Shown here piece by piece: positions 1,851 through 40,855 of a stretch of DNA of 64,000 bases. How positions within the stretch are numbered: the first letter of the stretch is position 1; every line of letters starts with the position of its first letter. The stretch is from Vicugna vicugna. Its lineage: Eukaryota. The stretch lies in contig MU058000.1 of the NCBI GenBank assembly GCA_013265495.1, forward strand, positions 186,001 through 250,000, given 5' to 3'. The position numbers were made by a program, and so were the translations under genes. A model generated the notes under the pieces. It searched no databases. It was not told the origin of the DNA and was given only the letters and a program-made list of their open reading frames with translations.

Positions 1851-4800
1851 ATGGTAAACATAAAATGTTTACTAAGAACCTATTGTGTTCAATGAACCAT
1901 ATGATAAGTAGTTTTCACCTTTGTTATTAAATTATTCAATCCACCTTTGTTAAGCATTAAAAGATTAAAGAGAAAATACTAAGAACCTTACATTGCCATG
2001 AATTACTGAGGGGGGTAAAAAAAAACAAACTGGATACTAGCATCAAGTAACCAAAAAATACGGTTAATTTTTATCTAAAGTAAATTTTAGTTGGAATGAG
2101 AAAGAATTAATTATAGCTTATAAATTATGGCAAGTAAATCAGCAGTGAGTTCTAGTGAAAACACCTTGATGGAAAGATACAGATAATTCAGCTTAACACT
2201 AAGGTCATAGCATCTTAGACTATGGTTTTTTTAAAGTCAAACATATTGCTACAATTACTGCTTAATTTCAAGTATTCCTCAGTGTTAAATAATTAAAAAT
2301 ATTAAATATTTTAAATATAGGAAATGAGTAAATATTGTTCTTGATATTTGTAAATATTGTTCTAGATGTAATAGTATCTGTTAGCATAATAGCAGCTATG
2401 ATCTTGCTATTTTATGTTGTACATATGTTGAAAGCGTAGTCTGCCTTTTAATATTCTGAAATACCAGTAAGCATTTTTGTCCAACACTCTTTTGATAAAT
2501 TTCAGAGTTCTTTTATTGTCTCTGATAAAACTGTGTTAAAATCATCTCAGAAATCTCAAAATGAGTGAAAGGATGAAAGAAGAAAATATAGAGTTATGCA
2601 TATACATATAATGAAAAAATGAAAAGGATGAATTTTAAACTCTAAGATTAGGAATAGCATGGCCAAATAGAATGATCACATTAATTTGGTGAATGTACTT
2701 GTCTTGTTATGTATGGTGCTGCCCCTGGTGACTAGTTACCACATTAAATCTTACTAGGTCAGAACATTATGATTCTTATTCACTTAAAAAAGGGCCATAA
2801 ATTTTCATTTGAGAATTAACCAGAATTTCAATTTCAAAAACACAAAGGATAATCTTATTCTTTGAGAGTCCATGAATTACTTTGTAATACCATATCATGG
2901 AAACTAAACACAAACTGATGTGTCAAAACACTCGTAATCAAAACTAATCCAAAGAGGAAAAATGGACACAGTAAAATTTAGATACCTTTGTAATATTAAT
3001 GAAAATAAAAACAACAATACATCCAGATTTATTTTTGACAATACTGAATTCAACTGAATCCAGGAAAGCTCCAATAGATTGTTATATTTTGAGAATAATT
3101 TCTAAAATCCTTAAAGATCACAAAAACTGGAAACATTGTTCTGAAAAGCTTAAAAATAAAAGTACCCATTAAGTAATGATGGCTGTGATTTCACAATTAT
3201 ATGCAGCACAAACTATATACGTTAACTGACTCTGTCTCAAAACTATTTTGAAGTACCAGAAAGCATTTTTAAAAAGTATTTTTCAAAATCATTATCCAAA
3301 CACCCCTTTACAAGAGATGGTCCATGTTCCTCTCCCCATCTCCCTCCCACTTCCCACCTCTCCCTATATATATTTCTAAATATTAAGTTTAACTGGCTTC
3401 AATATACTTTGATTAAGTTATTTGGAACTGAGATAGCAAGCTACGCAGGAAGAGCACTAGAGTGGAACACTGAGCGTCACTAGAGTGGAACTCTGGGCAG
3501 AAAACAGTAGTAAAAAGGCCTTGCAGGCAATAGAGTTCTTTATGACAGGAAAGTTGAGATAGGTGCCAATCCAAATAGGCCTCTTTATCATCATAATAAG
3601 GAAAGTACAAAGGAAACCATTTAAATGTTTACATAAAAAGCTAATCTCCCTTAATAAAGAAAAGATGATTACAGAAAACATTTTATATATAATTTTCTAT
3701 AGTATAATAATCTCTTTAATATTTCACAGGACAGAGTTTTTAAATAGTAGGCGAGGGAACAGTTAGCGAAAAGGGAAAGCGCTGTAAGAATGAGCAAGAT
3801 ACATAAAATATAAATAAAATGGGGAGGAAAAGATTGAGGTGGTTCTAAAAGAAAGGATTAAAAAAGAGGGCAATGTTTTCCAAGTGACAAAATAACTTAT
3901 TCAGGAATAATACAGTTTATTTTGTTTATAGAATTACATTATCATAAGATAACCTCTATACCGCTGCAGCCAATGGACATTTTCCTGTCCCTACCTTACT
4001 TGGGATCTTGGCAACATTTGCTACTGCAGACCACGTTCCTGCACTCGAGACTCACCCTTTCCCTTGCTCAAGTGACAATGCTCTCCAGAGGTCCTTCCTA
4101 TCCTATGTCACTCCTTCTCTTATCTTTTGAGAATTCACCTTTCCATGGCTAAACCTAAAATATTACCAATTAATGAATTCTGCCCTTAAACTTTTCAGGT
4201 TAACAGCAGGGTCTCTGCAGATCTAGTTGCAGAGAACAATGAGTCTAACCTCAGATCCCAAGATGCACCTTCAACTATTCTGAACCCTGCCCCGCCCAAG
4301 GTAGGCTGTTCCACAAGATCTTGTTTCATAATGCTGTTCCTTCTCTTCTGAATCTCTTTCTTTGCCTGGATATCTTTTACTTAACCTTTAAAACTCAGGT
4401 ATAGTGTCATTTCCTCTAGGAATTTTCTCAAAAAACTCTCAGTATAGGATGACTTTTCTCTCTGTTTCCACAGAAATCTGCTCATGTAATAACAGCATTC
4501 ATCACTGCTTAAAAATCACTAATTCACACATCTGCTTTCCCCCTAGACTATAACTTCATTGAGGTCACATTTAAAAAAAACTTTTTTTACTAAGAAGTAC
4601 AAAGTGCGTAGCAAAGTTATCAAATGTGTAGTTCAATGAGTGATCACCAAGTGTACAGCTATATAACTATTCCGAGAAGGATCATATCTTATTTGAATTT
4701 GCATTCTCTGTGATTAGTATATAATATTAATAAACAAATGACATTAATCAGGTTTGGAGTATATTAATCACTGCAAGAAACCATCCTAGAGCTATGATCT

Positions 4801-5239
4801 CAAAATTAAATTTCAGATACAAAGATTAAATATCATTTATAATGGGGAAACACATTTACAATCATGTAAACTAGCAACAGTATAGAATTGAAGTTTTCAA
4901 TTCAACAAATATGATGTTAAATAACAACTCTGGCACAAAACCAAAATACACACAGCTTGGCATCAAAACCCAGGGAAAGATCAGGGTCCATTAAATATTA
5001 CTTTGTCAGCATATGATCTTCTGAGCTAGCCGGTCACAGGGAATAGCTCTACAAGATTTCTAAAGAGTACAAACCAAAGATGGGTATTCTATCAACAGCT
5101 AAGCAACTCAGCTTCTTAGAACTGAGCATGTCAAAAGAACTGATGAAAACAGAACAGCTACCCAACCTGCCTCATGGTGAGTGGACGTGGGAGACTAAGC
5201 CAGGTCGGCATCTTAGAGGGATGAAAAAGGTAAGACAAT

Positions 5240-6065
5240 TTATTTGTAAAGGAATTACAATTCGACAGACAATGGCAGGAAAACAGCAACAGGAAGACAG
5301 TAAGGTATCTTTCAAGTACTGAGAGAACATGACTGTCAGCTAGAATTCTTTACTCAGGTATACAACCATTTAATAATTAAGGCAAAATAAAAGACATTTT
5401 AAGACAGAGAATTTGCCACTCATTGAAAGAGCTACTAAGTGACGCTTTACAGTAAGAAGGAAACTGAGTCCACAAGAAAATACTGGGTCACCGGGACAAC
5501 GGCGAGCAACAAAAATCATAAATATGTGGGTAAATCTAAATAAGCATTGTGGTTAACAATAATTTAAGAAGGTTTAAGAACAATATGGGACTAAAACAAG
5601 ATAATTTCAATATGCAAAATGGGGTGAGTGAAGACAGTAAAAGTATTCTAAGGTCCTTTTTAATACTTGAGGATCAAGATACTGAGTCACTATATAATTT
5701 AAGGAGACATGTTATAGTTTCAAAGGAACACACTAAAATCATAGAAATAGGATACAACACTTCCAAACATGTAGAGATGAAAAATGTAAAGAAAAGTGAG
5801 ACAAGTTGTGAATATATACATAAAGAGGAAACGTATAAATATATACACAGGAATGATGTGTACAGAGTTCAGGATAGTGGTCACAACTAAAGACGGAAAG
5901 AAGGGAAAGGGATCTGCTCAGGATCCTAACAATATACAGCAATTTTTTCATGCATATACAGCAAAATTTACCATCTGCTAAATCTAGGCTGTGGGTACAT
6001 CAACTTCCATCATTTTTATTTCTGTATACCGTATGTTTAAAATATTCCAGAATGAATTTTTTTAG
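5240..6065 (+). mobile_element. HAL1-like or L1ME ORF1 remnant followed directly by an L1-type 3' end
   Basis: ORF1 C-terminal motifs ('atctttcaagtactgagagaa..ctagaattcttta', 'aggcaaaataaaagacatttt'), then 3' UTR motifs ('ttcaggatagtggtcac', 'ctaggctgtgggtacat') with no recognisable ORF2 between them. Confidence 0.6.
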
Positions 6066-7966
6066 GTGAAGAAAGCAAACATTTAGCTAAGCCAACATAA
6101 TTTTGTTTTTTTAAAAAAAGGCTTAGTTAGCTGGAAGGTACACATGTTTATTTCCCAAAAGAAAAAAAGGGGGGAAAAAAAGTGGGATAAATTAATCATG
6201 TGGCAGGCCCAAGGAAAACTATGTTAAACAATGTTTAATATATGTATATTGTTTCCTCTTGAATCTCCAAGTGGTTTGTCTATGAGCCTTTGATTGTGGA
6301 AGAACTTATAATAAAAAATATATATACCAAAAAGTTGTGTTCTTATTCTAATGATGGTTCCATCAGTGATTAGAAATGGAGACAAGTGAGTAAGACATAG
6401 TATTAGGTGTGATTTAAAGTGAATTTTACAGATCAAGCAAAATTTTGTAAAACTGAAGGATGAGAGTACTACACTAACCAGCTTAAAACATACACATAAG
6501 TAAATTAGAAAGACTAAAAACAGGTTGCATTCTAGATTAGTCTTTGAAATGTACTAGTTTTCTTATTTCTCAAATGTCAAGCTGGAAATTGGCTGTGATA
6601 TATTTCTTTGCTTTGGCTTCAAAGGATCTCTAACCTCAGCATTTTCCACTGATAACTCAATCCCTCTGCTATTTGTAGGAGTGGTTTTTTTTTCCACTCA
6701 ACATCATATAAAAATCATGCTTGTTTTCTTTGATGACTCATGTTTTGCAGTATGTTGTTTATTAATTCCAAAACAATTCCTGTTAGTGACTGTTATTATA
6801 TCCTTAGGAGAATGAAGGCTAAAATTAGACCTTTTGATTTCCACTTCTTTCGTGGGCAGGTACGTGCATGCTTGACCTTTTCCCCCTCCAGCTGCTCATT
6901 TCTTAGGAGGCAGCAGCAGAAGGGCAGAAGTCAGAGAAATGGAGTTGCCTGCCTAGCTTTTAAAATTAAAGTTGACAGGTACAATGGGGTAAAAGAAAAA
7001 TATGTGCACACAGATGTCCTGATAGACTTTAGGGAGCTGTTTATGGCATTATTTATGTGGCTAAAAATAGGTATCTATACTGGAGTGTTTTCTGGTTTTG
7101 TTTTGGGGTTTTTGTTTTTGTCTTTTGTTTTTACCTTCAGACAAAGATGACATCTTCACAGTATTTACTTTCCATTGAAATGAACCTCCAAATTGTTCTG
7201 TCGCTTGCCAATCTCATGTACTAAGGCTTAAAGCTGTGTCTGTTGCAGGTTTTATCAGCTCTGGTCAGAAATGTCATAACTTACATCCATATACAACAAA
7301 AATATATATATTTGCCAATGTCATGAAGCAAAAGAACACGAAACGAAAGCGAATCCTATGAATGAAGTTGCTGAATAACTACTGAGAACTTTCATGTAAG
7401 TTATGTGTCTCCAATTTCTATACCGACAATTCTCATCTAAAAGGAAAATAATTTTAGAAATTATTTGAATACCATGCATCTTCCCTAAATACCCAGTGGT
7501 CTCAACTTTTAGAGTGTAGTCATGAAAAGAGAGCAACATCATCTCTCTAAATACATCCCTTTTACCTTTCCCCTACCAAGCATATGCACATGAAATTGAG
7601 GGACAGGGGAATGATATGAGTAGTCAAAACAGATGCCCTAAAGTCTATGTATGCAGAAAAATCATACATTTTAATCACAGGTAAAATCTTCAAAGCTTTT
7701 CTCAGCGTGTAATAACTTTTATATTCCATAAAATCCTGTCCAACTATTTTTTTAGACCAAAGCATATTTAAAGAAGTCAACCACACTTGGGCACATGAAG
7801 ATTCTGCAGAACCAGTAACAAAACATAGCCTTGATCACTGGACAAAACACCATTTCCAAATAAGAAAGGAAAGAGACAGAGGAAACGCTAGACCATGGTA
7901 CAAGAGTGAGCAGCGCTATATTATCAGTTGATGCTGAGGACCATTACTGTGTTATTTTTATCATAA

Positions 7967-8413
7967 TAAATTGCAATAAATTGGTTTGAGCTTATAGTAC
8001 ATAATTTTCATTCATAATCCAATGCCAGGTAAGAGAAGTATCCAACATAGTTCATAGAAGTATGTGAACATGTTAGAGTAACAGTTGATTATTTTAACAG
8101 TTTTTAATCCCCCAGTGAAACTGGTATGTCTGTATAGATCACTACTAAAGAGACATTGAACAAAGAAGGAACTCTTCTATACCTAATAGCACCGACTTTT
8201 TTTTCTTGAGAGCAGGTAAGAGTAAAATGAAAATATCATCTAGATTGGGTTAAAAGGTAAAGGAAAAATTTAAATATCCTAAATTTTTACACTAGCTGAC
8301 GTGTCCTTAGAAATTTACAAGTTTCTTGAATTAAGGCATTTCTTGATTGGGTCAATGAACAGCAAACTACATGATTAAAACACATTAAATTTACTCCTAA
8401 ATAGATTTGTCTA
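7967..8413 (+). repeat. Left arm of a ~450-bp inverted duplication (partner 10958-11408)
   Basis: Hand alignment to the reverse complement of 10958-11408 gives about 57 mismatches and 2 small gaps in ~447 nt, with two perfect 38-nt runs (AAAAGGTAAAGGAAAAATTTAAATATCCTAAATTTTTA; TGTCCTTAGAAATTTACAAGTTTCTTGAATTAAGGCAT). Confidence 0.95.
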
Positions 8414-9589
8414 TCACAAGTATAGTCTTCAAAGTTGAGAACATTTGTCCCAGGTCCTTAAATATATATTCATCATATTCTGCTTAAGAATGTAAGGGAA
8501 AACAAGAAACTGTAAGGATTATCAAAAAACTCTCAGATGCAACTAAAACAAATATACTTGCTTAAGGAAGTAAGCGTCAAGCACTGCAACATTTATCTGT
8601 GTATTACTAATGCTGTTGGCAAGATACTGTAGATGTTCAATTAATATTGATGGATAAATTCATGAGTAAACAGTGCATTAATTGAATATCATTTGTTGTA
8701 AATATGCTGATAAAAGTATAATAAATTACATACTTATTTCCATTTTATTTAAGAGAAATATTTAGAAATTATCTAGTTCAAGAGAATTTTTGGAAAAAGA
8801 AGAAAATTACAGAACAACACTTAGAAAAATAAATTGAAGTCCATTTCAAAAAAGCTTTAATAAAGTAAAAAAAAGTATCTGCTCACTCAGATTTTTTTTT
8901 TTTGATGTTAGAGATAATAGAACCAGAGCAATACCCCACTAGGCTATAAAATGAAAGTCCCATATCAGAGATTGCATTCGATTTCCCTTAAGAGTTTTTC
9001 AAGTAACCGAACACATTTACCTTGCTCAGGCTGTGTGTGTGTGTTTAAACCATGTTCAAAACCTCCTCAGCACAGCTTTATTGAAGGCAGTTCAGTTCCC
9101 AGGAGTAAGTACACTCATGAAAAAGCTTAAATTGCAAAGGCAGAAAATTCACTTATACTGTATAGAACCATATGGTGGTTTGACAGATCAAACTAACATC
9201 CAAAGGGAACTTTCCATTTGAATAGTAAGTAGACGATTATGGACATGGGCTTGAGGCTTTATTTAGAAACACAGATAATGCATCTGTTATTCTAAATAGT
9301 GAATGTTGGCAATATAGATTTTCCTTTCCCTCACTTGGGAGCACTGTAGATATTTGTTTATTGGTACCCTCTTGTATTTTCAAAATAATATACACTTTCT
9401 TTAGCTTGATTGCATATCTTTAGACACAGCATCAAGTGTCACATTAGGGAAAGCACTCTGCATAAATGGCTACATATAACAGAACCTTAAGAGAAAAGAA
9501 TTTCTTCAGCACATTCAAACCAATTTCAAAATACGACATGGCTTTATTTACCAGGCTCAATTCTCAACATAAAATACAGCTATAATGGA

Positions 9590-10172
9590 TGTGCATTATT
9601 TTTGCCTGCCCAGCAACTAGTTTCTCTTTTTCCCTAAAGAGGGTGCCCAGATTTTGCTTAGGAAACCACCTCTCCCACATTCCTCCTATAAAGTTCTAGT
9701 AGGGTTAACCCCACTGTCCGGTTTTAGCTTTGGACAAGTGACTGAAACCTGGTTACTGAGAGCACCGCAGTCGGGAACAATCGAAGGGCAGCGCTCACCA
9801 TCAGGCAAATCAACACCAGGGAGCATCTGCCCCAGGACTTTTACCAGAGCTACTGGGAAGTAAGGCCTTCCTTGCGTAGGATGAAAGCCTGCAGCTACCG
9901 GGGCTATGTTGTCACTACTTAGAGAACGCCTGGCTGAGAACACAGTTACATACAGGGAACCTTCACTGTTAAAAATGCTGATAGGTTAATGGAGTAAGAT
10001 TTTTGGATGCCCACAAATGAATGTTCTTGTGCCACAGATACACTATCATTTGTATTTTTAGTTCCTAACTCAATAAATAATCCCAGCCCTCTCTTTCTTT
10101 TTCTTCTTTTTGCTTAAGCTAGTTTGTTTTTTTTAAACCAGTTTAATATCACTTCAACCAAGATTCCTAACA
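9590..10172 (+). mobile_element. Old MaLR LTR (MLT1H-L-like)
   Basis: Starts 'tgtgcattatttttgcctgcccagc'; 3' part 'tcaataaataatccc...cttaagctagtttg...tcacttcaaccaagattcctaac' matches old MLT1 ends. Confidence 0.65.
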
Positions 10173-10239
10173 CAATAGCTCCTACAATTCAATACTTCTT
10201 TTCCCAAATGACTGAAATTTTATTATTTTGCAACAATTG

Positions 10240-10345
10240 AAAGAATTGGACTTAGACTTCTCAGTGAAGCCTGAGTTCTAATCCTAGGTTCATCAATGCA
10301 AGTTGTGAGGTCTTTGACAGGCTATGTCCTCTGTGGCTGATTTCT
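10240..10345. mobile_element. MIR fragment
   Basis: 'cctgagttctaatcctaggttcatca...gttgtgaggtctttgacagg..cctctgtg' resembles the MIR core. Confidence 0.55.
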
Positions 10346-10509
10346 TTGTAAAACACACAGCAGAGTATGTATCTTGCAGGGTTTTGTTGGAGAGTGAATG
10401 TACGGTGTGTCCAGCACAGCAGAGACTTGGTAAACTGCATTTCCCTTCCCTTTCTGGAGAAATAGAAGGACTTTTATATACTTATCCTTATATTTTTTAC
10501 ATTTCACAG

Positions 10510-10563
10510 GTGGAATGCGAAAAGGTTCCTCGGAGAAAGGGTTCTCAAATTCAAAAGACAAAG
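10510..10563 (+). other. Candidate 54-nt exon, open in all three frames
   Basis: Acceptor 'tattttttacatttcacag|G' and donor 'AAG|gtaatt'. Peptides not recognised. Confidence 0.3.
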
Positions 10564-10852
10564 GTAATTAATCCTTAACACACCAATAAGAAACTTTTCG
10601 TTTTTAAGGTAAGGACATGCTGTCTCAAGGAACTAAGAAATAAAACTGTAGAAATAGGTCATTAATAAAGGACCTAGTAAATTTTTTTCACACAAGCAGA
10701 AGCCTTAGTAATGTACCTCAGCATGAGGGGTAGTCTAGGCAGGCCTAGGGTTTGTGCTGAAGTTTTCCTGTGTGATTTTTATTGTTTGTTGATTTTAACT
10801 GGCTTGAGGCTTTTGGCTTTTGTTTTTCTTTTCTTTTCCATCAGCGACTTAC

Positions 10853-10896
10853 TCAACCTGAGTGTCTGTAACTTTGAGTCACACATTCCTGAGATA
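10853..10896 (-). other. Candidate 44-nt exon on the minus strand
   Basis: Minus strand reads 'ctaat' (branch-like) 'tctcttgttgttcttacag|TATCTCAGG...CAGGTTGA|gtaagt'. Confidence 0.3.
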
Positions 10897-10957
10897 CTGT
10901 AAGAACAACAAGAGAATTAGGTAGCCCGGTAACAAAACATACTGAGTTGGTTTTAGG

Positions 10958-11408
10958 TAGATGAATCTATTTAAGAGTGAATTTAATGTATTGTAATCAC
11001 GTAGTTTGCTATTCACTGACCCAATCAAGAGATGCCTTAATTCAAGAAACTTGTAAATTTCTAAGGACAAGTCAGCTAGCATAAAAATTTAGGATATTTA
11101 AATTTTTCCTTTACCTTTTAAACCCAATCTAGATGATACTTTCATATTACTCTTACTTGCTCTCAAAAAAAAAAAATCTGTATTATTAGGTATAGAAGAG
11201 TTCTTTCTGCTTTGTTCAATGTTTCTTTAGCAGTTGTCTGTACAGACATACCAGTTCCACTGATGGTTTAAAAACCAATGAAATCATCAACCATTACTCT
11301 AAAATATTCACATACTTCTACAAACTATGCTGGATACTTCTCTAATATGACATTAGATTATGAATGAAAATTAGGTTCTTTAAACTCTAAGTAATTTATT
11401 GTAAGTTA
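10958..11408 (-). repeat. Right arm of the ~450-bp inverted duplication (partner 7967-8413)
   Basis: Reverse complement aligns colinearly to 7967-8413 at about 87% identity (hand count). Confidence 0.95.
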
Positions 11409-12313
11409 CCTAATCTGTGATTTTTGCAGAAATCACAGAATTCTGTAAGCAACTAAGATTGAATACTTGTTACTGAGATTACGTAGTATGACAATGTGAC
11501 ATAATATTTAATATTAAAGTTTTGTATAGGCTTTAGAGTTTACACTTACGTGTGTTATTAGGATAGTGCTTTATGGGTAGTCAATTTAATGGTTAGCATT
11601 ATGGTAGATTCGTTAGCATATGGAAAAGCAGCTCTTAAGAAACACTCCCAAATCTGTCCTTGTAAGAAATTAAGTCATACAGCAAAAACCACAAATTACA
11701 ATAGAAGTTGACTTGCTACAGTAATACACACATTCCTTCTGAATTACATGGACAATAAAAAAACTCTAGCTCTCTAAACCAATAAACAAGTATTTATAAA
11801 TTTTCATTATTTTTTCCCATAGCAGAATTTGTGCAAGTTTTTATTTTGTAAAAACTGGTTAATATAATAAAAATAAGTTAATCAATCTAGAGGAAAAAAA
11901 CAAATAACTCTGCAATAATCTAGAATTGCAAAAAGTCATTATCAGGGCACAACCTAATATATGTGAACAGAGGTAATATTAAGATCACAAGAGATATAAT
12001 CTCACAATTCTCCATAACACGTCTTATTAGTCTTCTATTATTTACATCTGGACAAAAGCAAATGAAATCTGCAATGCTAATTTTCTAAGGGGTAATTTTT
12101 ACCTTTGCACCAAGAGACATAAAAACATTCATACTTTTTTGATCCAGTAATTCCACTTGAAAGAATAATCAGCAATGTACAGAACTATAAATGTACAAAG
12201 ATTATCATTTTCTTGTTACTTATAATAACATTTTCTAAAGGACCTAATGTCTGGCAATAGATTAGATATCACTTCCTTTAAGAATCTGATAAACACTTCA
12301 CCCCAGAAATATA

Positions 12314-12478
12314 CAGTTGACCCCACAGGAATGTGGAATTTGTAGTCAGCCTTCCATATCCTCCACATGAGGATCCAACCAACCACAGGATCATGTAGTA
12401 CTAGAGTATTCACTACTGAAAAATATCCAGGTGTACGTGGACCCACAGTTCAAACTCCTGTTGTTTAAGGGTCAACAA
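12314..12478. mobile_element. Tigger2/MER8-like internally deleted DNA transposon
   Basis: TA|CAGTTGACCC ... 'gtggacccacagttcaaactcctgttgtttaagggtcaacaa'|TA; terminal inverted repeats with TA target duplication. Confidence 0.8.
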
Positions 12479-12959
12479 TACACATTTGTTTTGTCCCTAT
12501 AACACATACATGTACATGCACACATACACACACACACTGAATATGATATAAAAACTGCACTGTCATCTAAGTCTGAAAACTATTAAAGGAGTCAACAACA
12601 ATTTCATACTGTATAGGAATGACTTTTAGGTTGATGAAAGGAAGAGAGCACAAAGTTTTCAGAGAAGAGAAAAAATGCAGCACACTTAATTACTGAAACT
12701 GAAATGCTTCATCTAAATAACTTAGAGAACAAAATTCAAAAATTGAAGGTTACGAAGATGCTTATATACCACCCACAGTGTTTATTCATCTGTTCATCTA
12801 TTCACTCTTCACAGTAAAGAAAACACTACGATATCAGTTTCTACACATGATTCAGTGGCTGTGAAGATCAGCGAGTGAAGCTCTTAGAAGGCTGATCTTT
12901 GATTTGAGGCTCTAACTGTGACAAAACCTGAAGCATTTTGTATTTCTTTCATTCCACAG

Positions 12960-13280
12960 AAGCACAAAGTACAATGTTCATTTACTCAGGCAATTCAATT
13001 CCAAAAACATACCTACTATGTGCCAGATTTAGGTGCCAGATGTACAAAGATGAATAAACACAGAGCCTATATTTCAGGGAGCTCACCATTTTAAGAATTC
13101 ATAAAAAATTATTTCTAACGGCTAGAATGTAACCTGCATAAGGACAGGAATGTTTGCCTGTTTTGCCCAGTGATATATCCTCAGTACCTGGAACAATCTC
13201 ACAATTACTAAAAGAGAGAGGCAAAATTTGAAGCAAAGTTTATCTGACTACAAAACCCATATTCTTAGCCAATATGTTAT
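12960..13280. mobile_element. Cluster of L2 3'-end fragments and a MIR piece
   Basis: 'acctactatgtgccag', 'ctagaatgtaacctgcataaggacaggaatgtttgcctgttttg', 'aaatttgaagcaaagtttatctgactacaaaaccc'. Confidence 0.6.
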
Positions 13281-13384
13281 CTGACTAGCCTGTATTGACT
13301 GTATAACAAACTTCTGATTAAAAATTGGCTTTTTCTAAAATATATAAGTTATACACCTGAAACACAACAGCAGGGACACTTTAC

Positions 13385-13970
13385 ATAATAATGAACACAG
13401 GAAAGTCAGAAAAATAACAAGAACAGACACAATGACCACTAGTATTCAGGACTTTTTTTAGTCTTCTATATATGTATGTATCTCTAAATAATATATTGTT
13501 TCCTTTTCCCTTTAAAATTTGATGAATATATTTATGCTGTATTTTCTGTGCCTTGCTTTTCTTACTCAGCTTTATACTTGACACTACCATGCTGGTGAGT
13601 TGATACAATGTGTTCATTTTAACTTTATGAGTATGAATACACCAGTTTTTAAATTCTTCTATAGGTGAAAAATGTCAGCTATTTTCAATTTGTTCGGCAG
13701 TTACAAGTGGTGGCTCCTTATGTGCATCATCTCCGAGGTTAGGTGTGCAAGGGTTTCTCCTGGGTGTACACCTAGGGGAGGAACCGCCCAGACACGTAGC
13801 CAGCACACATTCAGCTTTTTAAAACAATGCTGTTACTTTCCACTGTTCCTGTATTTATAAATTGGTATTATACATATGTTCTAAAAATGGATGAAAGTTC
13901 CATTGCTATCGTCCTCACATCATTTCTTATTATATATTTAAAATTTTCTTTAATTTTGCTAATCTTAAAA
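13385..13970 (-). mobile_element. Old L1ME-like fragment, antisense
   Basis: 'ttgcttttcttactcagc', 'acacctaggggaggaaccgcc', 'gaaagttccattgct..cctcac' are reverse complements of L1 3' motifs. Confidence 0.65.
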
Positions 13971-14079
13971 AAAAGAAACTAGCTTCCTCTACAACTTTCC
14001 TCTAGAGAGATGACACGTATTGGCACAAGAGGTCTGCTATATTAACAATAATACCTTTCATTGCAGAAGTTTCATTGTA

Positions 14080-14532
14080 AAGTCTCCCATCAGTATTAAG
14101 GTACAAATCTACTCATATCCCCCTCCTGCTTAAAGCATGAAAGACATCACAGGGGATCTACGTTCAAGCCAATACTCCATGCGCAGCTCACAAGCTCCCC
14201 TGGACCTGCTACTAGTTCCTGCCTGCTTCTCCAGCCTCTTCTGTCACCACCCTTTCTCGCTCCCTCTCACGACTGCGAGTGCCAAACTGAACCTCCTCCA
14301 GTTCCTCCAGTGAAACTTCCAAGCTTAACCATCATTGAGTCTCCACCATACCCCTGCCCCCATACCTGGACAAGCAGAACTTCCCACTATGTGCTCTCAC
14401 GGACCAGCTGGACTGTAGAATTTACGAAGTTGGGGATACATCGACCTCAGACCTCATTCATCACTGTATCTCCTTTGTTTAGCTCCCTGTTTGGTCCAAA
14501 TTAAGTCCTCAATAAATATTTCAATGGATGAT
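14080..14532 (+). mobile_element. L2 3' fragment
   Basis: 'ccctcctgcttaaag', 'cttctccagcctc', ends 'ctcaataaatatttcaatggatga'. Confidence 0.65.
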
Positions 14533-17196
14533 TATATGTTCCTAGTTAAAATAAATCTACTCCTTATGAGAGGCATCCTTTACTGGTGCAAAAAAAATCT
14601 GAATCCACAAGTCTAAGTATCAGACCGTGGACTACGGTGAATTTACAAAGGTCGAGGGCTACCCACAGAGCCCTCTTGAGTCAAGAGTCTTCCCTGCGTA
14701 TGTATGTCTACGACAGGAGGGGCCCGTGCCACGTATGTCCTCTTCAATATTTGAAATACTAACAGCTTCCCAGGCTGGAGATCTGCGTACAAAGGAGGCA
14801 AGAGATGAGGCAGAGAAACGTGTGTTACGAGGGGCCCCGTGTGCTGCATTACCCAGTTCAGGCTCTGCCCTCACAGGAAATGGCAACCCTGCAAGAGTAA
14901 CACTTGGGCAAGTTATGACTAATTTAGTGTTTCCAATGAACTTCTTAGGATGCTTTATGGAGAAAAAAGTGTTGAGAAACAAGGCTTCTTACTGGAAACT
15001 CCTGGTACCAACTTCTACTTTATATTGACTACATTCTTATAAATGAGTGAATCCTTCAGGTTTTCCTCCTGGGAATATTTTTTTGGATTTTGAAGTCAGA
15101 GGTTCCTGAAGGGCGATTCTGGGAAGGAAATTTTAAAGCATGAAAATGTTCTCCAAGAATATTTAGGACTATTTTTAAAGATTTGAAAATGGCAGTAACA
15201 TCAGTATAGATGTTCCATGAAGACACAAACAGAAAAGCAGTGTACTTTGTGTGACTTTTCAGTATTTCATATTTTCTCAGTTGGTGGGTTATGCCTGATA
15301 GGTATTTTCTCCAGACTGTATAGATTAGAAAATAGAACTAAAGTTGCCATTCTCCCTTTATCCTGGCTATCATTTCTTCCTAATTTCTAGTTCAGACAAG
15401 CTAACTTCATATGCTTATTTATCTCTTATGTATTTTTCTTTTATTCCTACCTTTCCATCTTCTCCTACAAAACCTTACATGTTTTTTTTTTCTTTCCCTC
15501 TTTCCATAGCTACCATCTTGGTCCATCACGATATCTAGATTGTAATAAAAGCCTTAAGTTTTTAATCTAAATCTTCCCTCTTCTCCAGTATAGCCCCAAC
15601 AGAGCCAACATGGAAATCTCCCTTATACAAATTTCATAACAGTTTTCCTCTAAGATAAGAACCACCAGCAGCTTACCACAGCTTAGCTTATCAGTCTGCA
15701 CTGGAGTTAATATTCTTGGTGTGTCATTAATATATGACCTGCTCCCAAGCCATCAGCCCCTCAAATTCTTAACTTAGTATTTTCTAAGTATCTCCTCTTT
15801 TCTTAGAAGCTGATTTCCTCTGACCCATCCTAGCTACCTATAATGCCAACCCCTCAATAGCCTTAATATTCCTGGTTTTATTTCTTACAACTGATCAGTT
15901 ACTCGGTCTGTAAATGAAAATTCATTACCATGTTCTCTTTGGAACTGATACTCAATTATAGATGAGACATTTGCTAATTGAATTTCCCTTTGATTTGGTC
16001 CTAGAATCGACATGACACAGTGAATCCAATACACAGTACATTACAGGAAGATCTGACATCATCCCTGTCTCTGTGTGCTCCCTCTTCCCTCCCCAGAATT
16101 TCAACTCCACTAGAAAAAAAAGAAATATTAGGCCTTTCCACTATCATCCACAGCGCCCAAACATGGCTTTCTTATTGTGCTCATTAAATTGTTAGTCTCT
16201 GAAACTAAAATTTAAGAGTCTGAAGGCAAGAACAGTGTCTAATCATTATATTCAGAGAAACAATGATGCCACACACTGATAATGACTGATAGTGGTAGGC
16301 TATCAATAAATTAATTAATCTATCCATTTACTGAGTATCCATCATGCGTCAGACATTGAGATAATGCAGATTTGTCAGTAAACAAACAAAAAATTTAATT
16401 CTAGGATCTCCTAAGTAAAGTGCATCTTTGTAGCTCTACTACTTATTGCTACTGATTTGTCCTGTTTTCTGAAACATCTATGGCTCTGACTGTCTTCCAC
16501 CTTCATGATGTGATGTTACTCCACAGATGGGAGACAGATGTATGTATGGTAGTCAGTGACAGCTTGCTAGATGAGCACATGGAACGTGACCTACTCAAAC
16601 AGTTAAGAATGCTACTGCACAGCCTAACACCCAGCCCCACCTCACTTCCCAGCATCACAGCTCTCCAGGAACGCAGGTCATGTTTTATAGCATGAAGACA
16701 TAGTCCCTCCCTCTTATTTTTTATATGCAGTTATCACCTCGTGCCAGTCCTTACTCCAAAATGAGTCTTATTTCATGCTTTTTTCCTTTTTCTATTGTTG
16801 CCTCCCGGCTTTGTTCCCCACAACCTCTTCCTCTTCTCGTGTTCTCTTTGCCAGGGAGGAGCACTGCACACAGTCTTTCGGTTCTGCATGCCCAAAAGAT
16901 ACCCCTCACTATAATCTACCACAGGGTCCCTCGGATTTAAACTCTCAAATCCAGCTGCATCTCACCATTTCCATTACCACTATTCCAAGCTAATATTATA
17001 TCTCCTCTGAGACTAGAATAGCCACTTTTAAGTGGCTTCCTCATTTCCATTTTCTGCTCCCAGCTCTTCTCCATGTTCAGTCAGGATTATTCTTTCAAAA
17101 CACAGATCTGACCATTTGTCCCAAACCTGCCTGAAACCCAGCAATGGACTGTCAGGGCTGTTAGAATAAAACCTGCTTAACACGGTCTATCCTTCC

Positions 17197-26359: not shown

Positions 26360-27215
26360 CGAAGAACACTGACAATACCAAAGGCTGGCAAGGATGTGGA
26401 ACAAGGGGAATTCTCATTCACTGTGGGAATGCAAAGTTCCATACACACTTTAGAAGACAATCTGGAAGTTTCTTACAAAACTAAACATACTCTTGCCATA
26501 CGATCCAGCGATTGTGCTGTTTGGTATTTACCTAAGCAAATTGTAAACTTATGTCCACATAAAAAGCTGCACAGGGATTTTAACAGCAGCTTTATTCATA
26601 ATTGCCAAAATTTGGAAGTAATCAAGATGGCTGTCATCAGGTGGATGGATAAATAAACTGTGGTACACCCAGACAACGGAATATCACTCAGTGCTAAAAA
26701 GAAATGAGCTATCAAGCCATAAAAATGCAAGAGAGAGGAACCTTAAATGCATATTACAAAGTGAAAGAAACCAATCTCAAAAGAGTATATATTGTATGAT
26801 TCTAAATCTGTGACATTCTGGTAACAGCAAGAAGATCAGTGATTGTCAGGGAGAGAGAAGGGCGAACAAACAGAGAGCAAAGAGGATGTTTAGCGCTGTG
26901 AAAACTTTGTACGACACTATAAGGGTGGATACATGTCACTGTATAATTTTCAATACCCATAGAGTGTATAACACCAAGAGTAAAACCCTAATGTAAAGTA
27001 CGGATCCTGGATCACTATGATTCGTCAATGTAGGTTTATCAACAATAATAAATGTACCACTCTGGTTGGGGACTTTGATAAAGAGGGGAGGCTATGCATG
27101 CATGGGAGCAGCGGGTACACAGGAACTCTATGTACTATGTACTTTATGTACTTTTCACTCAATTTTGCTATGAATCTAAAACCACTTTCAAAAATAAGTC
27201 TGTTTTTAAAAAAGT
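26360..27215 (+). mobile_element. L1MC1-like 3' end
   Basis: 'ttcttacaaaactaaacatactc', 'aaaaagaaatgagctatcaagccat', 'acaccaagagt..aaccctaatgtaa', 'aaatgtaccactctgg', A-rich tail; same family type as 1-1020. Confidence 0.9.
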
Positions 27216-38235: not shown

Positions 38236-40855
38236 TAGCCATTTGGCTTTTCTGTGTCTCTGGAATTTTCCTTAAACAGAATTTAAATAAAATTTCCTTA
38301 TCCTGAAACAGAGAGAGAGATTTTGTCCAGATTATCAATTTTTTAAAAGTTCTACACAACCTCTTTAATTGTTTCTTCAGTTGGAAAAAATAAAATACAT
38401 ATTCGTATCCACTGACTTCCTCGTGTCTTTCTACAGAAAGCACACATACCAGGAATAGCTTAAACCCCACCCCAACCCTGTATTGGTAAGAGTAGGGGGA
38501 CTTTCAAAGCCACTTACTTTCCAAGTGGTGTCTGGAATCCCTTTGTGTTAGGGCCTTAAATTGAGCAGCCCACTAGAAAATGTGAGCCTAGGGATGTCTC
38601 TCAGGATGGCGTCATCCTGCCAGGTGGCACTTGGCTGATACAACGTGATTGTTATTGTCATTGATCATTTTTTATTTTGCCATAGCCTGTCTAATAAACC
38701 TCTTGGACTTTTCTTGTTAAAAAAAAAAAAAAAGCATCGTTGAAAACGGAGCAGAAGAGGCAAGACTGATGCTACTGCTTTGTCTGGTAGAGGAATACTT
38801 TTCATTTAAAACTCTTTTCATATTAACTTACTGGTTTCATTTTCAGACTATGGAAAAATTAGTGTCATCAGTATTCAGTTTCTTCAAGAAGCTGAAAGAA
38901 AAAAGTGGACTCAGATAAAAACGAATTAGCCTGGGGTCAAGCTGATGACAGTGTCAGGTAGTAGAGAAATTGTGTACCAAGTTATGAATTTTGCACATTA
39001 GATCGCAGAATGATGGTATTCATTTGAAACATGAAGTCATGGAGGGTGATTCACATATTTAAAACATTTCAATGTGAAAATGGCTAGGAAGCCCCTAAAA
39101 CCCAGGACAGTGCTAAACACTAAGCAAGGTTCAGTGGAGGCTTAATTGTTGAATGAAAGATCATTTGCCAGAACTAAGACTTGGTCACTTAATGAAACAG
39201 AAATATGGGGTTAAAAATTGGAACCAGTAAGTATTATAAAAAGAGGATTAAATAAAAAGTGCACCCCACCAGAGGCAGCAGTAGCATCAATCTTTCCTCT
39301 TCTTCTATTCCACTGTCAACAGGGCTAAGGCATTACTTCCATCTGTTTCAAACCAGAGTGTCCTAGTTTGTTATACTAATACTTGTCATTACTAGGATCA
39401 CCCCGGGATCTCAGAGCCACCATCAATGCACATACTTCATAGACACAAGAGGCCCTGAACAACCACAGAGGAAGCAGGAAATTGCTCTGCCTAGTGGTCC
39501 AAAGTCCTGAATCTATTTTAATTGCAGATACGTTTTTGCTTGTGATAGTAAACTGAAGACTCTCGCTTAAGAATAACAACAAAAAGAGTGCACATTGTTT
39601 TGCTGAATATTTATGTAACTGAGAGATCAGATTGTTTGCAAGAACTTCAGATGCACTTGTTACCTAGATACATTCAAATAAGCTGTAAATACAAACTAAC
39701 ATTGTTGCTTAAGAAAATACTGTGAAATTGTAATTTTATCTTTTCATTAAAGAAGGTTTTTTTTAAAAAAATTTTTTCCTGGGCAGTTTGACTTCAAATT
39801 ACTATATGTATTAAGCGATAATGCTTTATACTCCACAACTCAAAATTTTCACTAATGCTGCCTTGCAACTCCAACTAACGAGATTTAAAAAATGATCAGA
39901 ATAACCAACACACTATGAATTCAAAGCAGTGTTGGGGAGGGTGGATCAAATTGCTTAATGGACTAAAGAACATCAATTGCTTAATTATACAGAACACACT
40001 GGGCTGAAACAATATCACTCAGTTTCTATCAAATCTTCCATCTGCAGAGCTAGAAGCCTTCTGGCTGCTTAGCCAAATGCTCTTTTCCAATTTGGTAGTA
40101 CTACAAGATTTTTAGATACAAGCAACTTAATCTGAGCTGAATGCATGAGAAACAACAGTGACGACGTTTCAAATGACTCCAGCATCAGAGGATAATATTT
40201 GCTGAAAAACAAATAATAATAATTAATAAATAATTAATTAATTTAAACTGGGACTATACATCACTTGTGGGCACTAAAATATTTAGGAAAGTTAGTCTAA
40301 TCACTTTATGTCATGGAAGGTGGCTGACTTACATGTTTTACAGTAGTAACTCTGCTCCTGTTTAGAAAATATTAAGCATACTTTCAAATATTAAATTTTA
40401 AAGTCTAAAATTAAATTTATATCTAAAAATAAATAAGATTTCAGTCTCTAGAGAAGGTTACTTTACTACCTTTTCTGATTAATGACTGATGACAAATTTT
40501 CTTTAAAAATCAACTATCCTTAATGCATTGTTTTTCATTATAACTTTAGACTTTGCAAGGATCAAGATGAACCACCAAAGTCAATCTCTACTTTGTCTAT
40601 CCAATAATATAAAGCATTTAATTTCATAGCATGCAGTTGAATGGAGGATTTGCAACATTATAAAAGCTGGGGTAAAAAGGGTAAACTATGTAATAATAAT
40701 CTGCAACTTAGCATGTACTATACTTTTCACATATGTGATAATTAGATGGTGGGGTAATAGGCTTTTTTAAACACTGAAAGAGGAAAAATAAAACATTAGA
40801 CATGTCCCTGAGCTAGCCTCAGACAGGTCTTAGGGACCACACTGATATTTATATG

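Follow-up and report, generated by a model that had tools for sequence, protein, structure and literature searches.

A two-copy inverted duplication deep in a CEP128 intron of Vicugna vicugna, probably a neutral relic of a local event

What kind of element is the long inverted repeat that lies at positions 7967-11408 of a 64-kb stretch of the Vicugna vicugna genome (assembly GCA_013265495.1, contig MU058000.1, contig positions 186001-250000; this whole stretch is called the window below)? A preceding interpretation of the same DNA, made from its letters (the sequence-only reading), had described two inverted copies of DNA resembling no repeat on either side of a 2.5-kb spacer, and had proposed that they might act as a double-stranded RNA (dsRNA) hairpin, as a circular RNA (circRNA) and exon-skipping module, or as a site of RNA editing. 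The analysis presented here places both copies within a single, very long intron of the gene CEP128, and it suggests that the pair is probably a neutral relic of a local inverted duplication of unique DNA.

A repeat search of the window finds three inverted segments, collinear with one another, that together make up a single pair. Local alignment of the two arms (447 versus 451 nt) spans 451 columns (390 identical, 4 with gaps), for an identity of 86.5% with gap columns and 87.2% without them; both the ends of the arms (Table 1) and the hand-counted identity of about 87% are as the sequence-only reading had given them. The differences between the arms comprise 39 transitions and 18 transversions, and the Kimura two-parameter (K2P) distance is 0.142. 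When positions 3000-16000 are compared with the whole window by sensitive blastn, the pair is recovered at E 2.6e-132 and its edges are sharp: the homology stops at the ends of the arms, and the flanking sequences are unrelated. Judged by this alignment, the inverted pair is not a product of chance. No other inverted pair with a length of 150 bp or more and a separation of up to 10 kb exists in the surrounding 264 kb, which comprise the window and 100 kb on each side of it. There is no N anywhere in the window.

The host gene is identified by an open exon of 240 amino acids (aa) on the minus strand, 128 kb from the repeat, whose product matches CEP128 isoform X4 from Vicugna pacos at 100% identity and that from Camelus bactrianus at 98%. 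With the 1190-aa V. pacos isoform X4 as the tblastn query, 14 exon matches appear in order, all on the minus strand, over the 264 kb. The repeat occupies contig positions 193967-197408. Its CEP128 neighbours are the exons encoding aa 871-937 (upstream, ~90.3 kb away) and aa 935-951 (downstream, ~28.5 kb away); the intron between these exons is ~122 kb long, and the entire window is inside it. Because the whole window lies between two adjacent CEP128 exons, both arms belong to the same intron, and thus to one transcription unit, and no coding exon is enclosed by them. The intronic position that the sequence-only reading had supposed is therefore correct. Consistent with this placement, a tblastn search of the window with 120 CEP128 proteins reveals no CEP128 coding exon (best E 0.09). 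The window also has no CpG island and no long reading frame of note.

Two minor features were seen in the course of the gene mapping. Weak tblastn matches to the CEP128 isoforms of panda, bears and mustelids (E 0.09-0.3, 35-39% over 31 aa) occur at window positions 38446-38532 (-); going by these matches, an alternative exon of the intron may have left a relic here, or the likeness could be chance. The only CpG-rich 500-bp segment in the 264 kb, at contig positions 89501-90000 (GC content 0.56, observed/expected CpG 0.64), is located just outside the final exon matches of CEP128, where the neighbouring gene may have its promoter.

The placement of the arms bears directly on the proposal of a circRNA or exon-skipping module, which fails: both arms are in the same intron, and there is no CEP128 exon between them or elsewhere in the window. 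According to a study of circularisation (PMC6283421), complementary sequences across two flanking introns promote circularisation, and pairs within one intron compete with this. Since the CEP128 arms are of the 'within'-intron kind, neither back-splicing nor exon skipping is expected from them. Human CEP128 does yield a circular RNA, circCEP128 (PMC6069875); nothing links this human RNA to the intron that carries the inverted duplication.

Table 1. Coordinates of the inverted duplication and of the CEP128 exons that bound its intron (window positions, except where contig positions are named)
Feature	Position	Strand	Basis	Remarks
Left arm	7967..8413	+	ends by local alignment	447 nt; 3' arm in CEP128 pre-mRNA (minus strand)
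Core, left arm	8234..8354	+	change-point scan	117/122 aligned columns identical
Spacer, loop of predicted hairpin	8414..10957	.		2544 nt, unique DNA; no CEP128 coding exon
Right arm, inverted copy	10958..11408	-		451 nt; 5' arm in CEP128 pre-mRNA
Core partner, right arm	11017..11138	-	change-point position list	8233 pairs with 11139, 8355 with 11016
CEP128 exon, aa 871-937	contig 287896-287696	-	tblastn	
CEP128 exon, aa 935-951	contig 165492-165442	-	tblastn	

The next question is whether the arms belong to a family of repeats. In a whole-genome DNA search of the assembly from which the window comes (2.03 Gb, 12405 contigs), each arm matches only itself and its partner, both of its two matches lying at the locus even at E<=10, in a search to which families older than ~25% divergence are invisible. 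This agrees with the earlier statement that the arms match no recognisable multi-copy repeat. The spacer, used as a query in the same way, gives a single short match outside the locus (72 nt, 78% identity), and since the search tool reported a match of this kind, a third copy of an arm at 86% would have shown. The independent insertion of two members of a young interspersed family was considered and is rejected: a 13% difference between the arms implies a family ~7% from its consensus with equally similar members, none of which exist in the 2.03-Gb genome, and the arms are therefore not independent copies of that sort.

Within the spacer, at ~10250-10460 (+), there is a putative old MIR-like short interspersed nuclear element (SINE); it has no other copy in the 264 kb. 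An nhmmer search of the 264 kb finds no further copy of an arm, and as the MIR-like control and the spacer pieces are also matchless there, this search is uninformative about old families. It is this blind spot of the methods that keeps alive, as the foremost of the alternatives though an unlikely one, the proposal that the arms are transposon-derived, either as two opposite insertions of a very low-copy family or as the two ends (long terminal inverted repeats) of a single DNA transposon of 3.4 kb. It would fit with this proposal that most inverted matches within introns pair repetitive elements, as stated in PMC7006430. Against it stand the presence of just two genomic copies, at a search sensitivity of 78-86%, and the absence of a transposon-related Pfam domain from the 39 distinct frames tested in and around the arms; these frames, in which no transposase domain is found either, cover the arms and the part of the spacer near them. 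Inspection by eye of the surroundings of the whole unit detects no TG..CA ends, no poly(A) end, no clear target-site duplication and no matching flanks, and there are no other copies of the arms or the spacer. In addition, the MIR-like SINE, if correctly labelled, suggests that the spacer is old host DNA rather than the interior of a young element.

Further comparisons of the arms were negative. No Rfam family reaches its threshold; two matches far below threshold, both to bacterial families, were rejected. A 69-aa reading frame that runs across the right arm has no candidate in the protein collection against which it was compared. Two exact-word scans, in which words of the core were sought in metagenome contigs for the DNA of other mammals, gave 0 matches and are uninformative. 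A retro-pseudogene of PCNA in the frame 8290-8457 (-) was also considered and rejected. This frame matches the Pfam domain PCNA_N at E 1.7e-4 (21.8 bits, cut-off 20.3) over 31 residues, corresponding to profile positions 56-86 and to window positions 8344-8436 (-), a span that crosses the boundary between the left arm and the spacer. The PCNA-like site scores 18.6 bits (E 1.8) in the whole-genome search; the DNA of alpaca PCNA exons 1 and 2 resembles positions 7000-9500 no more than shuffles do, 106 of 200 and 191 of 200 of which, respectively, reach or exceed its score. With no PCNA match in the other 34 frames tested and no collinear further pieces, the match is probably due to chance.

If the arms are indeed carried in one RNA, how well would they pair? 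Cofolding of the arms in CEP128-sense RNA gives -571 kcal/mol; with one arm shuffled, five controls reach -165 to -175 kcal/mol. Arm-to-arm pairs are predicted for 408 of 451 nt, the longest unbroken helix being 49 bp, and the minimum-energy fold of the whole 3442 nt retains the same 408 pairs. In silico, the hairpin reading appears sound; the formation of the duplex in cells and its editing by ADAR would be expected by analogy with known intronic inverted repeats. What stands of the original proposal is thus the candidate dsRNA hairpin, as a long imperfect duplex that is predicted, and what falls is its circRNA part. The 39 transition differences, read in sense RNA, divide into 25 G.U and 14 A.C pairs; because this split has a binomial p of 0.11, these counts offer no sign of selection for pairing.

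The identity of the arms is not even along their length. The change-point scan delimits a best segment with 95.9% identity (117/122), compared with 83.0% (273/329) outside it, which bears out the ~120-bp core of near 95% that had been noted before. Two long perfect runs exist within it, as had also been noted, with lengths of 40 nt (8250-8289) and 38 nt (8302-8339) instead of 38 nt for each. With a fixed 120-column window, a fraction of 0.0066 of 5000 shuffles match the observed best; when the size of the segment is scanned too, ~0.06 of 300 shuffles reach the observed unevenness. By halves, the spacer-distal portion of the arms is 83.0% identical (38 differences/224) versus 91.5% for the spacer-proximal portion (19/223; substitutions only, Fisher p 0.010). 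This is in line with the described decay of identity toward the outer edges, a description that does not extend to the last 59 nt beside the spacer, where identity is lower again (9 differences). Uneven identity is therefore only moderately supported, with a p that varies by test (0.007, 0.01 or 0.06). Taken by itself, the core shows no local RNA structure on either strand of either copy (z +0.47 to +0.98), and a miRNA- or snoRNA-like core (microRNA or small nucleolar RNA, respectively) was rejected for this reason. Most simply, the core could be one later tract of arm-to-arm gene conversion, 100-200 bp in length, or could be chance, and constraint on a DNA element may also account for it; the analysis of unevenness uses two sequences from one species.

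These observations enter into two further proposals. In the first, the arms would form a maintained, functional dsRNA in the CEP128 pre-mRNA, either as a source of endogenous small interfering RNA (endo-siRNA) or as an ADAR-bound structure that would affect processing of the long intron, with the core kept paired by conversion or selection. The predicted 408-pair duplex, the contrast between the core and the rest of the arms, and the greater number of G.U than A.C pairs would all suit this proposal, as would the importance of CEP128 in spermatogenesis that is given in PMC8927350; in addition, two RNA-sequencing runs from one study contain ~0.30 of the sampled words of 7500-11900, a word-share hint from unaligned reads. 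However, the G.U excess is not significant, the heterogeneity becomes borderline when segment size is scanned, a 13% overall mismatch means that there has been no sustained homogenisation, and no exon is enclosed, so that we regard a maintained dsRNA as improbable.

In the second proposal, slightly less probable than the maintained dsRNA, the core would be a DNA element under constraint, cis-regulatory or of another kind, duplicated along with its flanks, and both copies would be under purifying selection. The step-like rise in identity at the core points in this direction, and as the core has no RNA structure of its own, the constraint would act on DNA; on the other side, redundant copies are rarely both kept, and the statistics support a discrete segment only modestly. 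About as doubtful as this constrained element is the more specific claim of a camelid-specific, maintained long dsRNA in the CEP128 intron, its core paired by recurrent conversion or selection and serving as a germ-line source of endo-siRNA or as an ADAR-bound structure, or, alternatively, of a duplicated regulatory core with both copies retained. An assembly artefact, whether a false inverted join or a collapsed haplotype, is the least probable explanation of all, because although this is a draft assembly in 12405 contigs, the 13% difference between the arms far exceeds haplotype difference, the window is free of N, and the fraction present among the sampled words from 7500-11900 is 0.89-0.92 in 14 DNA runs (six organism codes, reads unaligned), where it would be at most ~0.80 if both arms, which make up 20% of that stretch, were missing. 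The low fractions of 0.19-0.20 in some other runs carry no information.

The explanation that we favour, and consider likely, is the neutral relic of a local inverted duplication, and we infer its mode of origin, its age, its neutrality, and its transcription and editing in the animal as follows. Deep in the ~122-kb CEP128 intron, a unique segment of ~450 bp would have been copied in inverted orientation to a site 2.5 kb away, probably by a template switch during replication or repair, and the copies would have drifted apart since then, to the present 13% difference. Transcription of CEP128 from the minus strand in the animal would place both arms in the same intron RNA, where co-transcriptional folding should yield an imperfect ~400-bp duplex closed by a loop of 2.5 kb. 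This duplex would be a likely incidental substrate of nuclear ADAR and would be removed with the intron; as no exon is bracketed, neither back-splicing nor exon skipping would be expected to follow from it.

If neutral rates of 2.2e-9 and 1e-9 per site per year apply, the K2P distance between the arms would make the duplication ~32 to 71 million years (My) old; for the core (K2P 0.0425), a reset by conversion would imply an age of ~10 to 21 My. These ages would place the event within the camelid lineage, probably before the camel-llama split, and the estimate predicts that both arms are present in camels.

Several points weigh against the interpretation as a neutral relic of unique DNA. The uneven identity along the arms is not predicted by pure neutral decay after a single event. 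Old repeat families escape the methods used, the MIR-like control in the spacer being without a second copy in the 264 kb, and the duplicated segment may derive from an ancient transposon fragment; the duplication would be local either way. By eye, there is no clear target-site duplication or microhomology that would indicate the mechanism, the sole hint being a weak TCATAA/TCACAA at the ends of the left arm. Finally, the sequence comes from one species, and the age, the polarity of the arms (which of the two is the copy) and the neutrality rest on two arms.

Some other features of the spacer and the window may be recorded. In the spacer, an exon-like piece of 54 nt at 10510-10563 (+) is preceded by a pyrimidine tract and AG and followed by GTAATT (by eye), is open in all three frames, and retains two CpGs. 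Its orientation, opposite to that of CEP128, means that the piece does not belong to this gene as an exon; it may instead be a pseudo-exon, or may form part of an antisense RNA. A G+C-richer patch of the spacer at 9600-9990, with a 99-aa open frame at 9686-9985 (-), resembles an old long terminal repeat or SINE fragment by eye, and the genome search of the spacer gave no other copy of it. Outside the repeat, direct repeats at 513-812 and 26423-26725, 25.9 kb apart, contain segments of 113 and 141 nt that are 80% identical; these are probably two copies of an interspersed repeat.

As it stands, the inverted duplication is of little importance: inverted duplicates abound in introns and, since they never enter the cytoplasm, are tolerated. 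What small value it has is that of a clean two-copy inverted micro-duplication with an estimated age, belonging to no transposon family, in a very long intron. Set beside camel and outgroup genomes, it could reveal the pace at which the arms of such a pair decay and whether pairing is preserved locally by short conversion tracts; with alpaca RNA data, ADAR editing other than that of SINE pairs could be studied on it as a simple natural substrate.

How, then, does the CEP128 pair compare with known inverted repeats? Palindromes with arm-to-arm gene conversion are reported to exist on the mammalian X and Y chromosomes (Warburton et al. 2004; Rozen et al. 2003). The CEP128 pair resembles them in having inverted arms around a unique spacer and, in its core, a possible conversion tract. 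However, the arms of those palindromes are kilobases to megabases in length, at least 99% identical, and often contain testis genes, whereas the CEP128 arms are 450 bp, 87% identical and non-coding; as whole arms they are not homogenised, and the support for the more similar core is modest. Hairpin loci that give rise to endo-siRNA in mouse oocytes were reportedly described by Watanabe et al. and by Tam et al., both in 2008. Here the shared feature is a long inverted repeat in one RNA, which could be diced; the differences lie in tissue and species and in the lower identity of the CEP128 arms. Exon circularisation by inverted repeated Alu elements (IRAlus) located across flanking introns was reportedly described by Zhang et al. 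in 2014. Like the circularising intronic complementary sequences (IRAlus) treated in PMC6283421, the CEP128 arms are long inverted complementary sequences in the introns of a gene, but they differ from circularising pairs in that both are in one intron, enclose no exon, and have the competing 'within' configuration.

The known kind to which the CEP128 pair belongs is the ordinary intronic inverted duplicated sequence. In Barak et al. (2020, Genome Biol, PMC7006430), inverted duplicated sequences are described as frequent in pre-mRNAs, where their depletion is much weaker than in mRNAs; most are pairs of repeats, they are depleted only when they are both long and nearly perfect, and nuclear editing of them is expected. 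Like the cases in that account, the CEP128 pair consists of two reverse-complement segments of >300 bp within one pre-mRNA, both of them intronic and detected by the identity of the arms, and it would share their expected fate of nuclear ADAR editing and removal with the intron. Its arms are reverse complements of high identity, they lie in one transcription unit, and they are predicted to pair with each other. Two differences can be drawn from the same account: its cases mostly pair interspersed repeats, whereas the CEP128 arms are a two-copy, non-family sequence, and at 87% identity the CEP128 arms are well below the 'nearly perfect' class (>96%) that is depleted and potentially immunogenic. 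Within this known kind, the CEP128 inverted duplication is a real, tidy and locally unusual structure.

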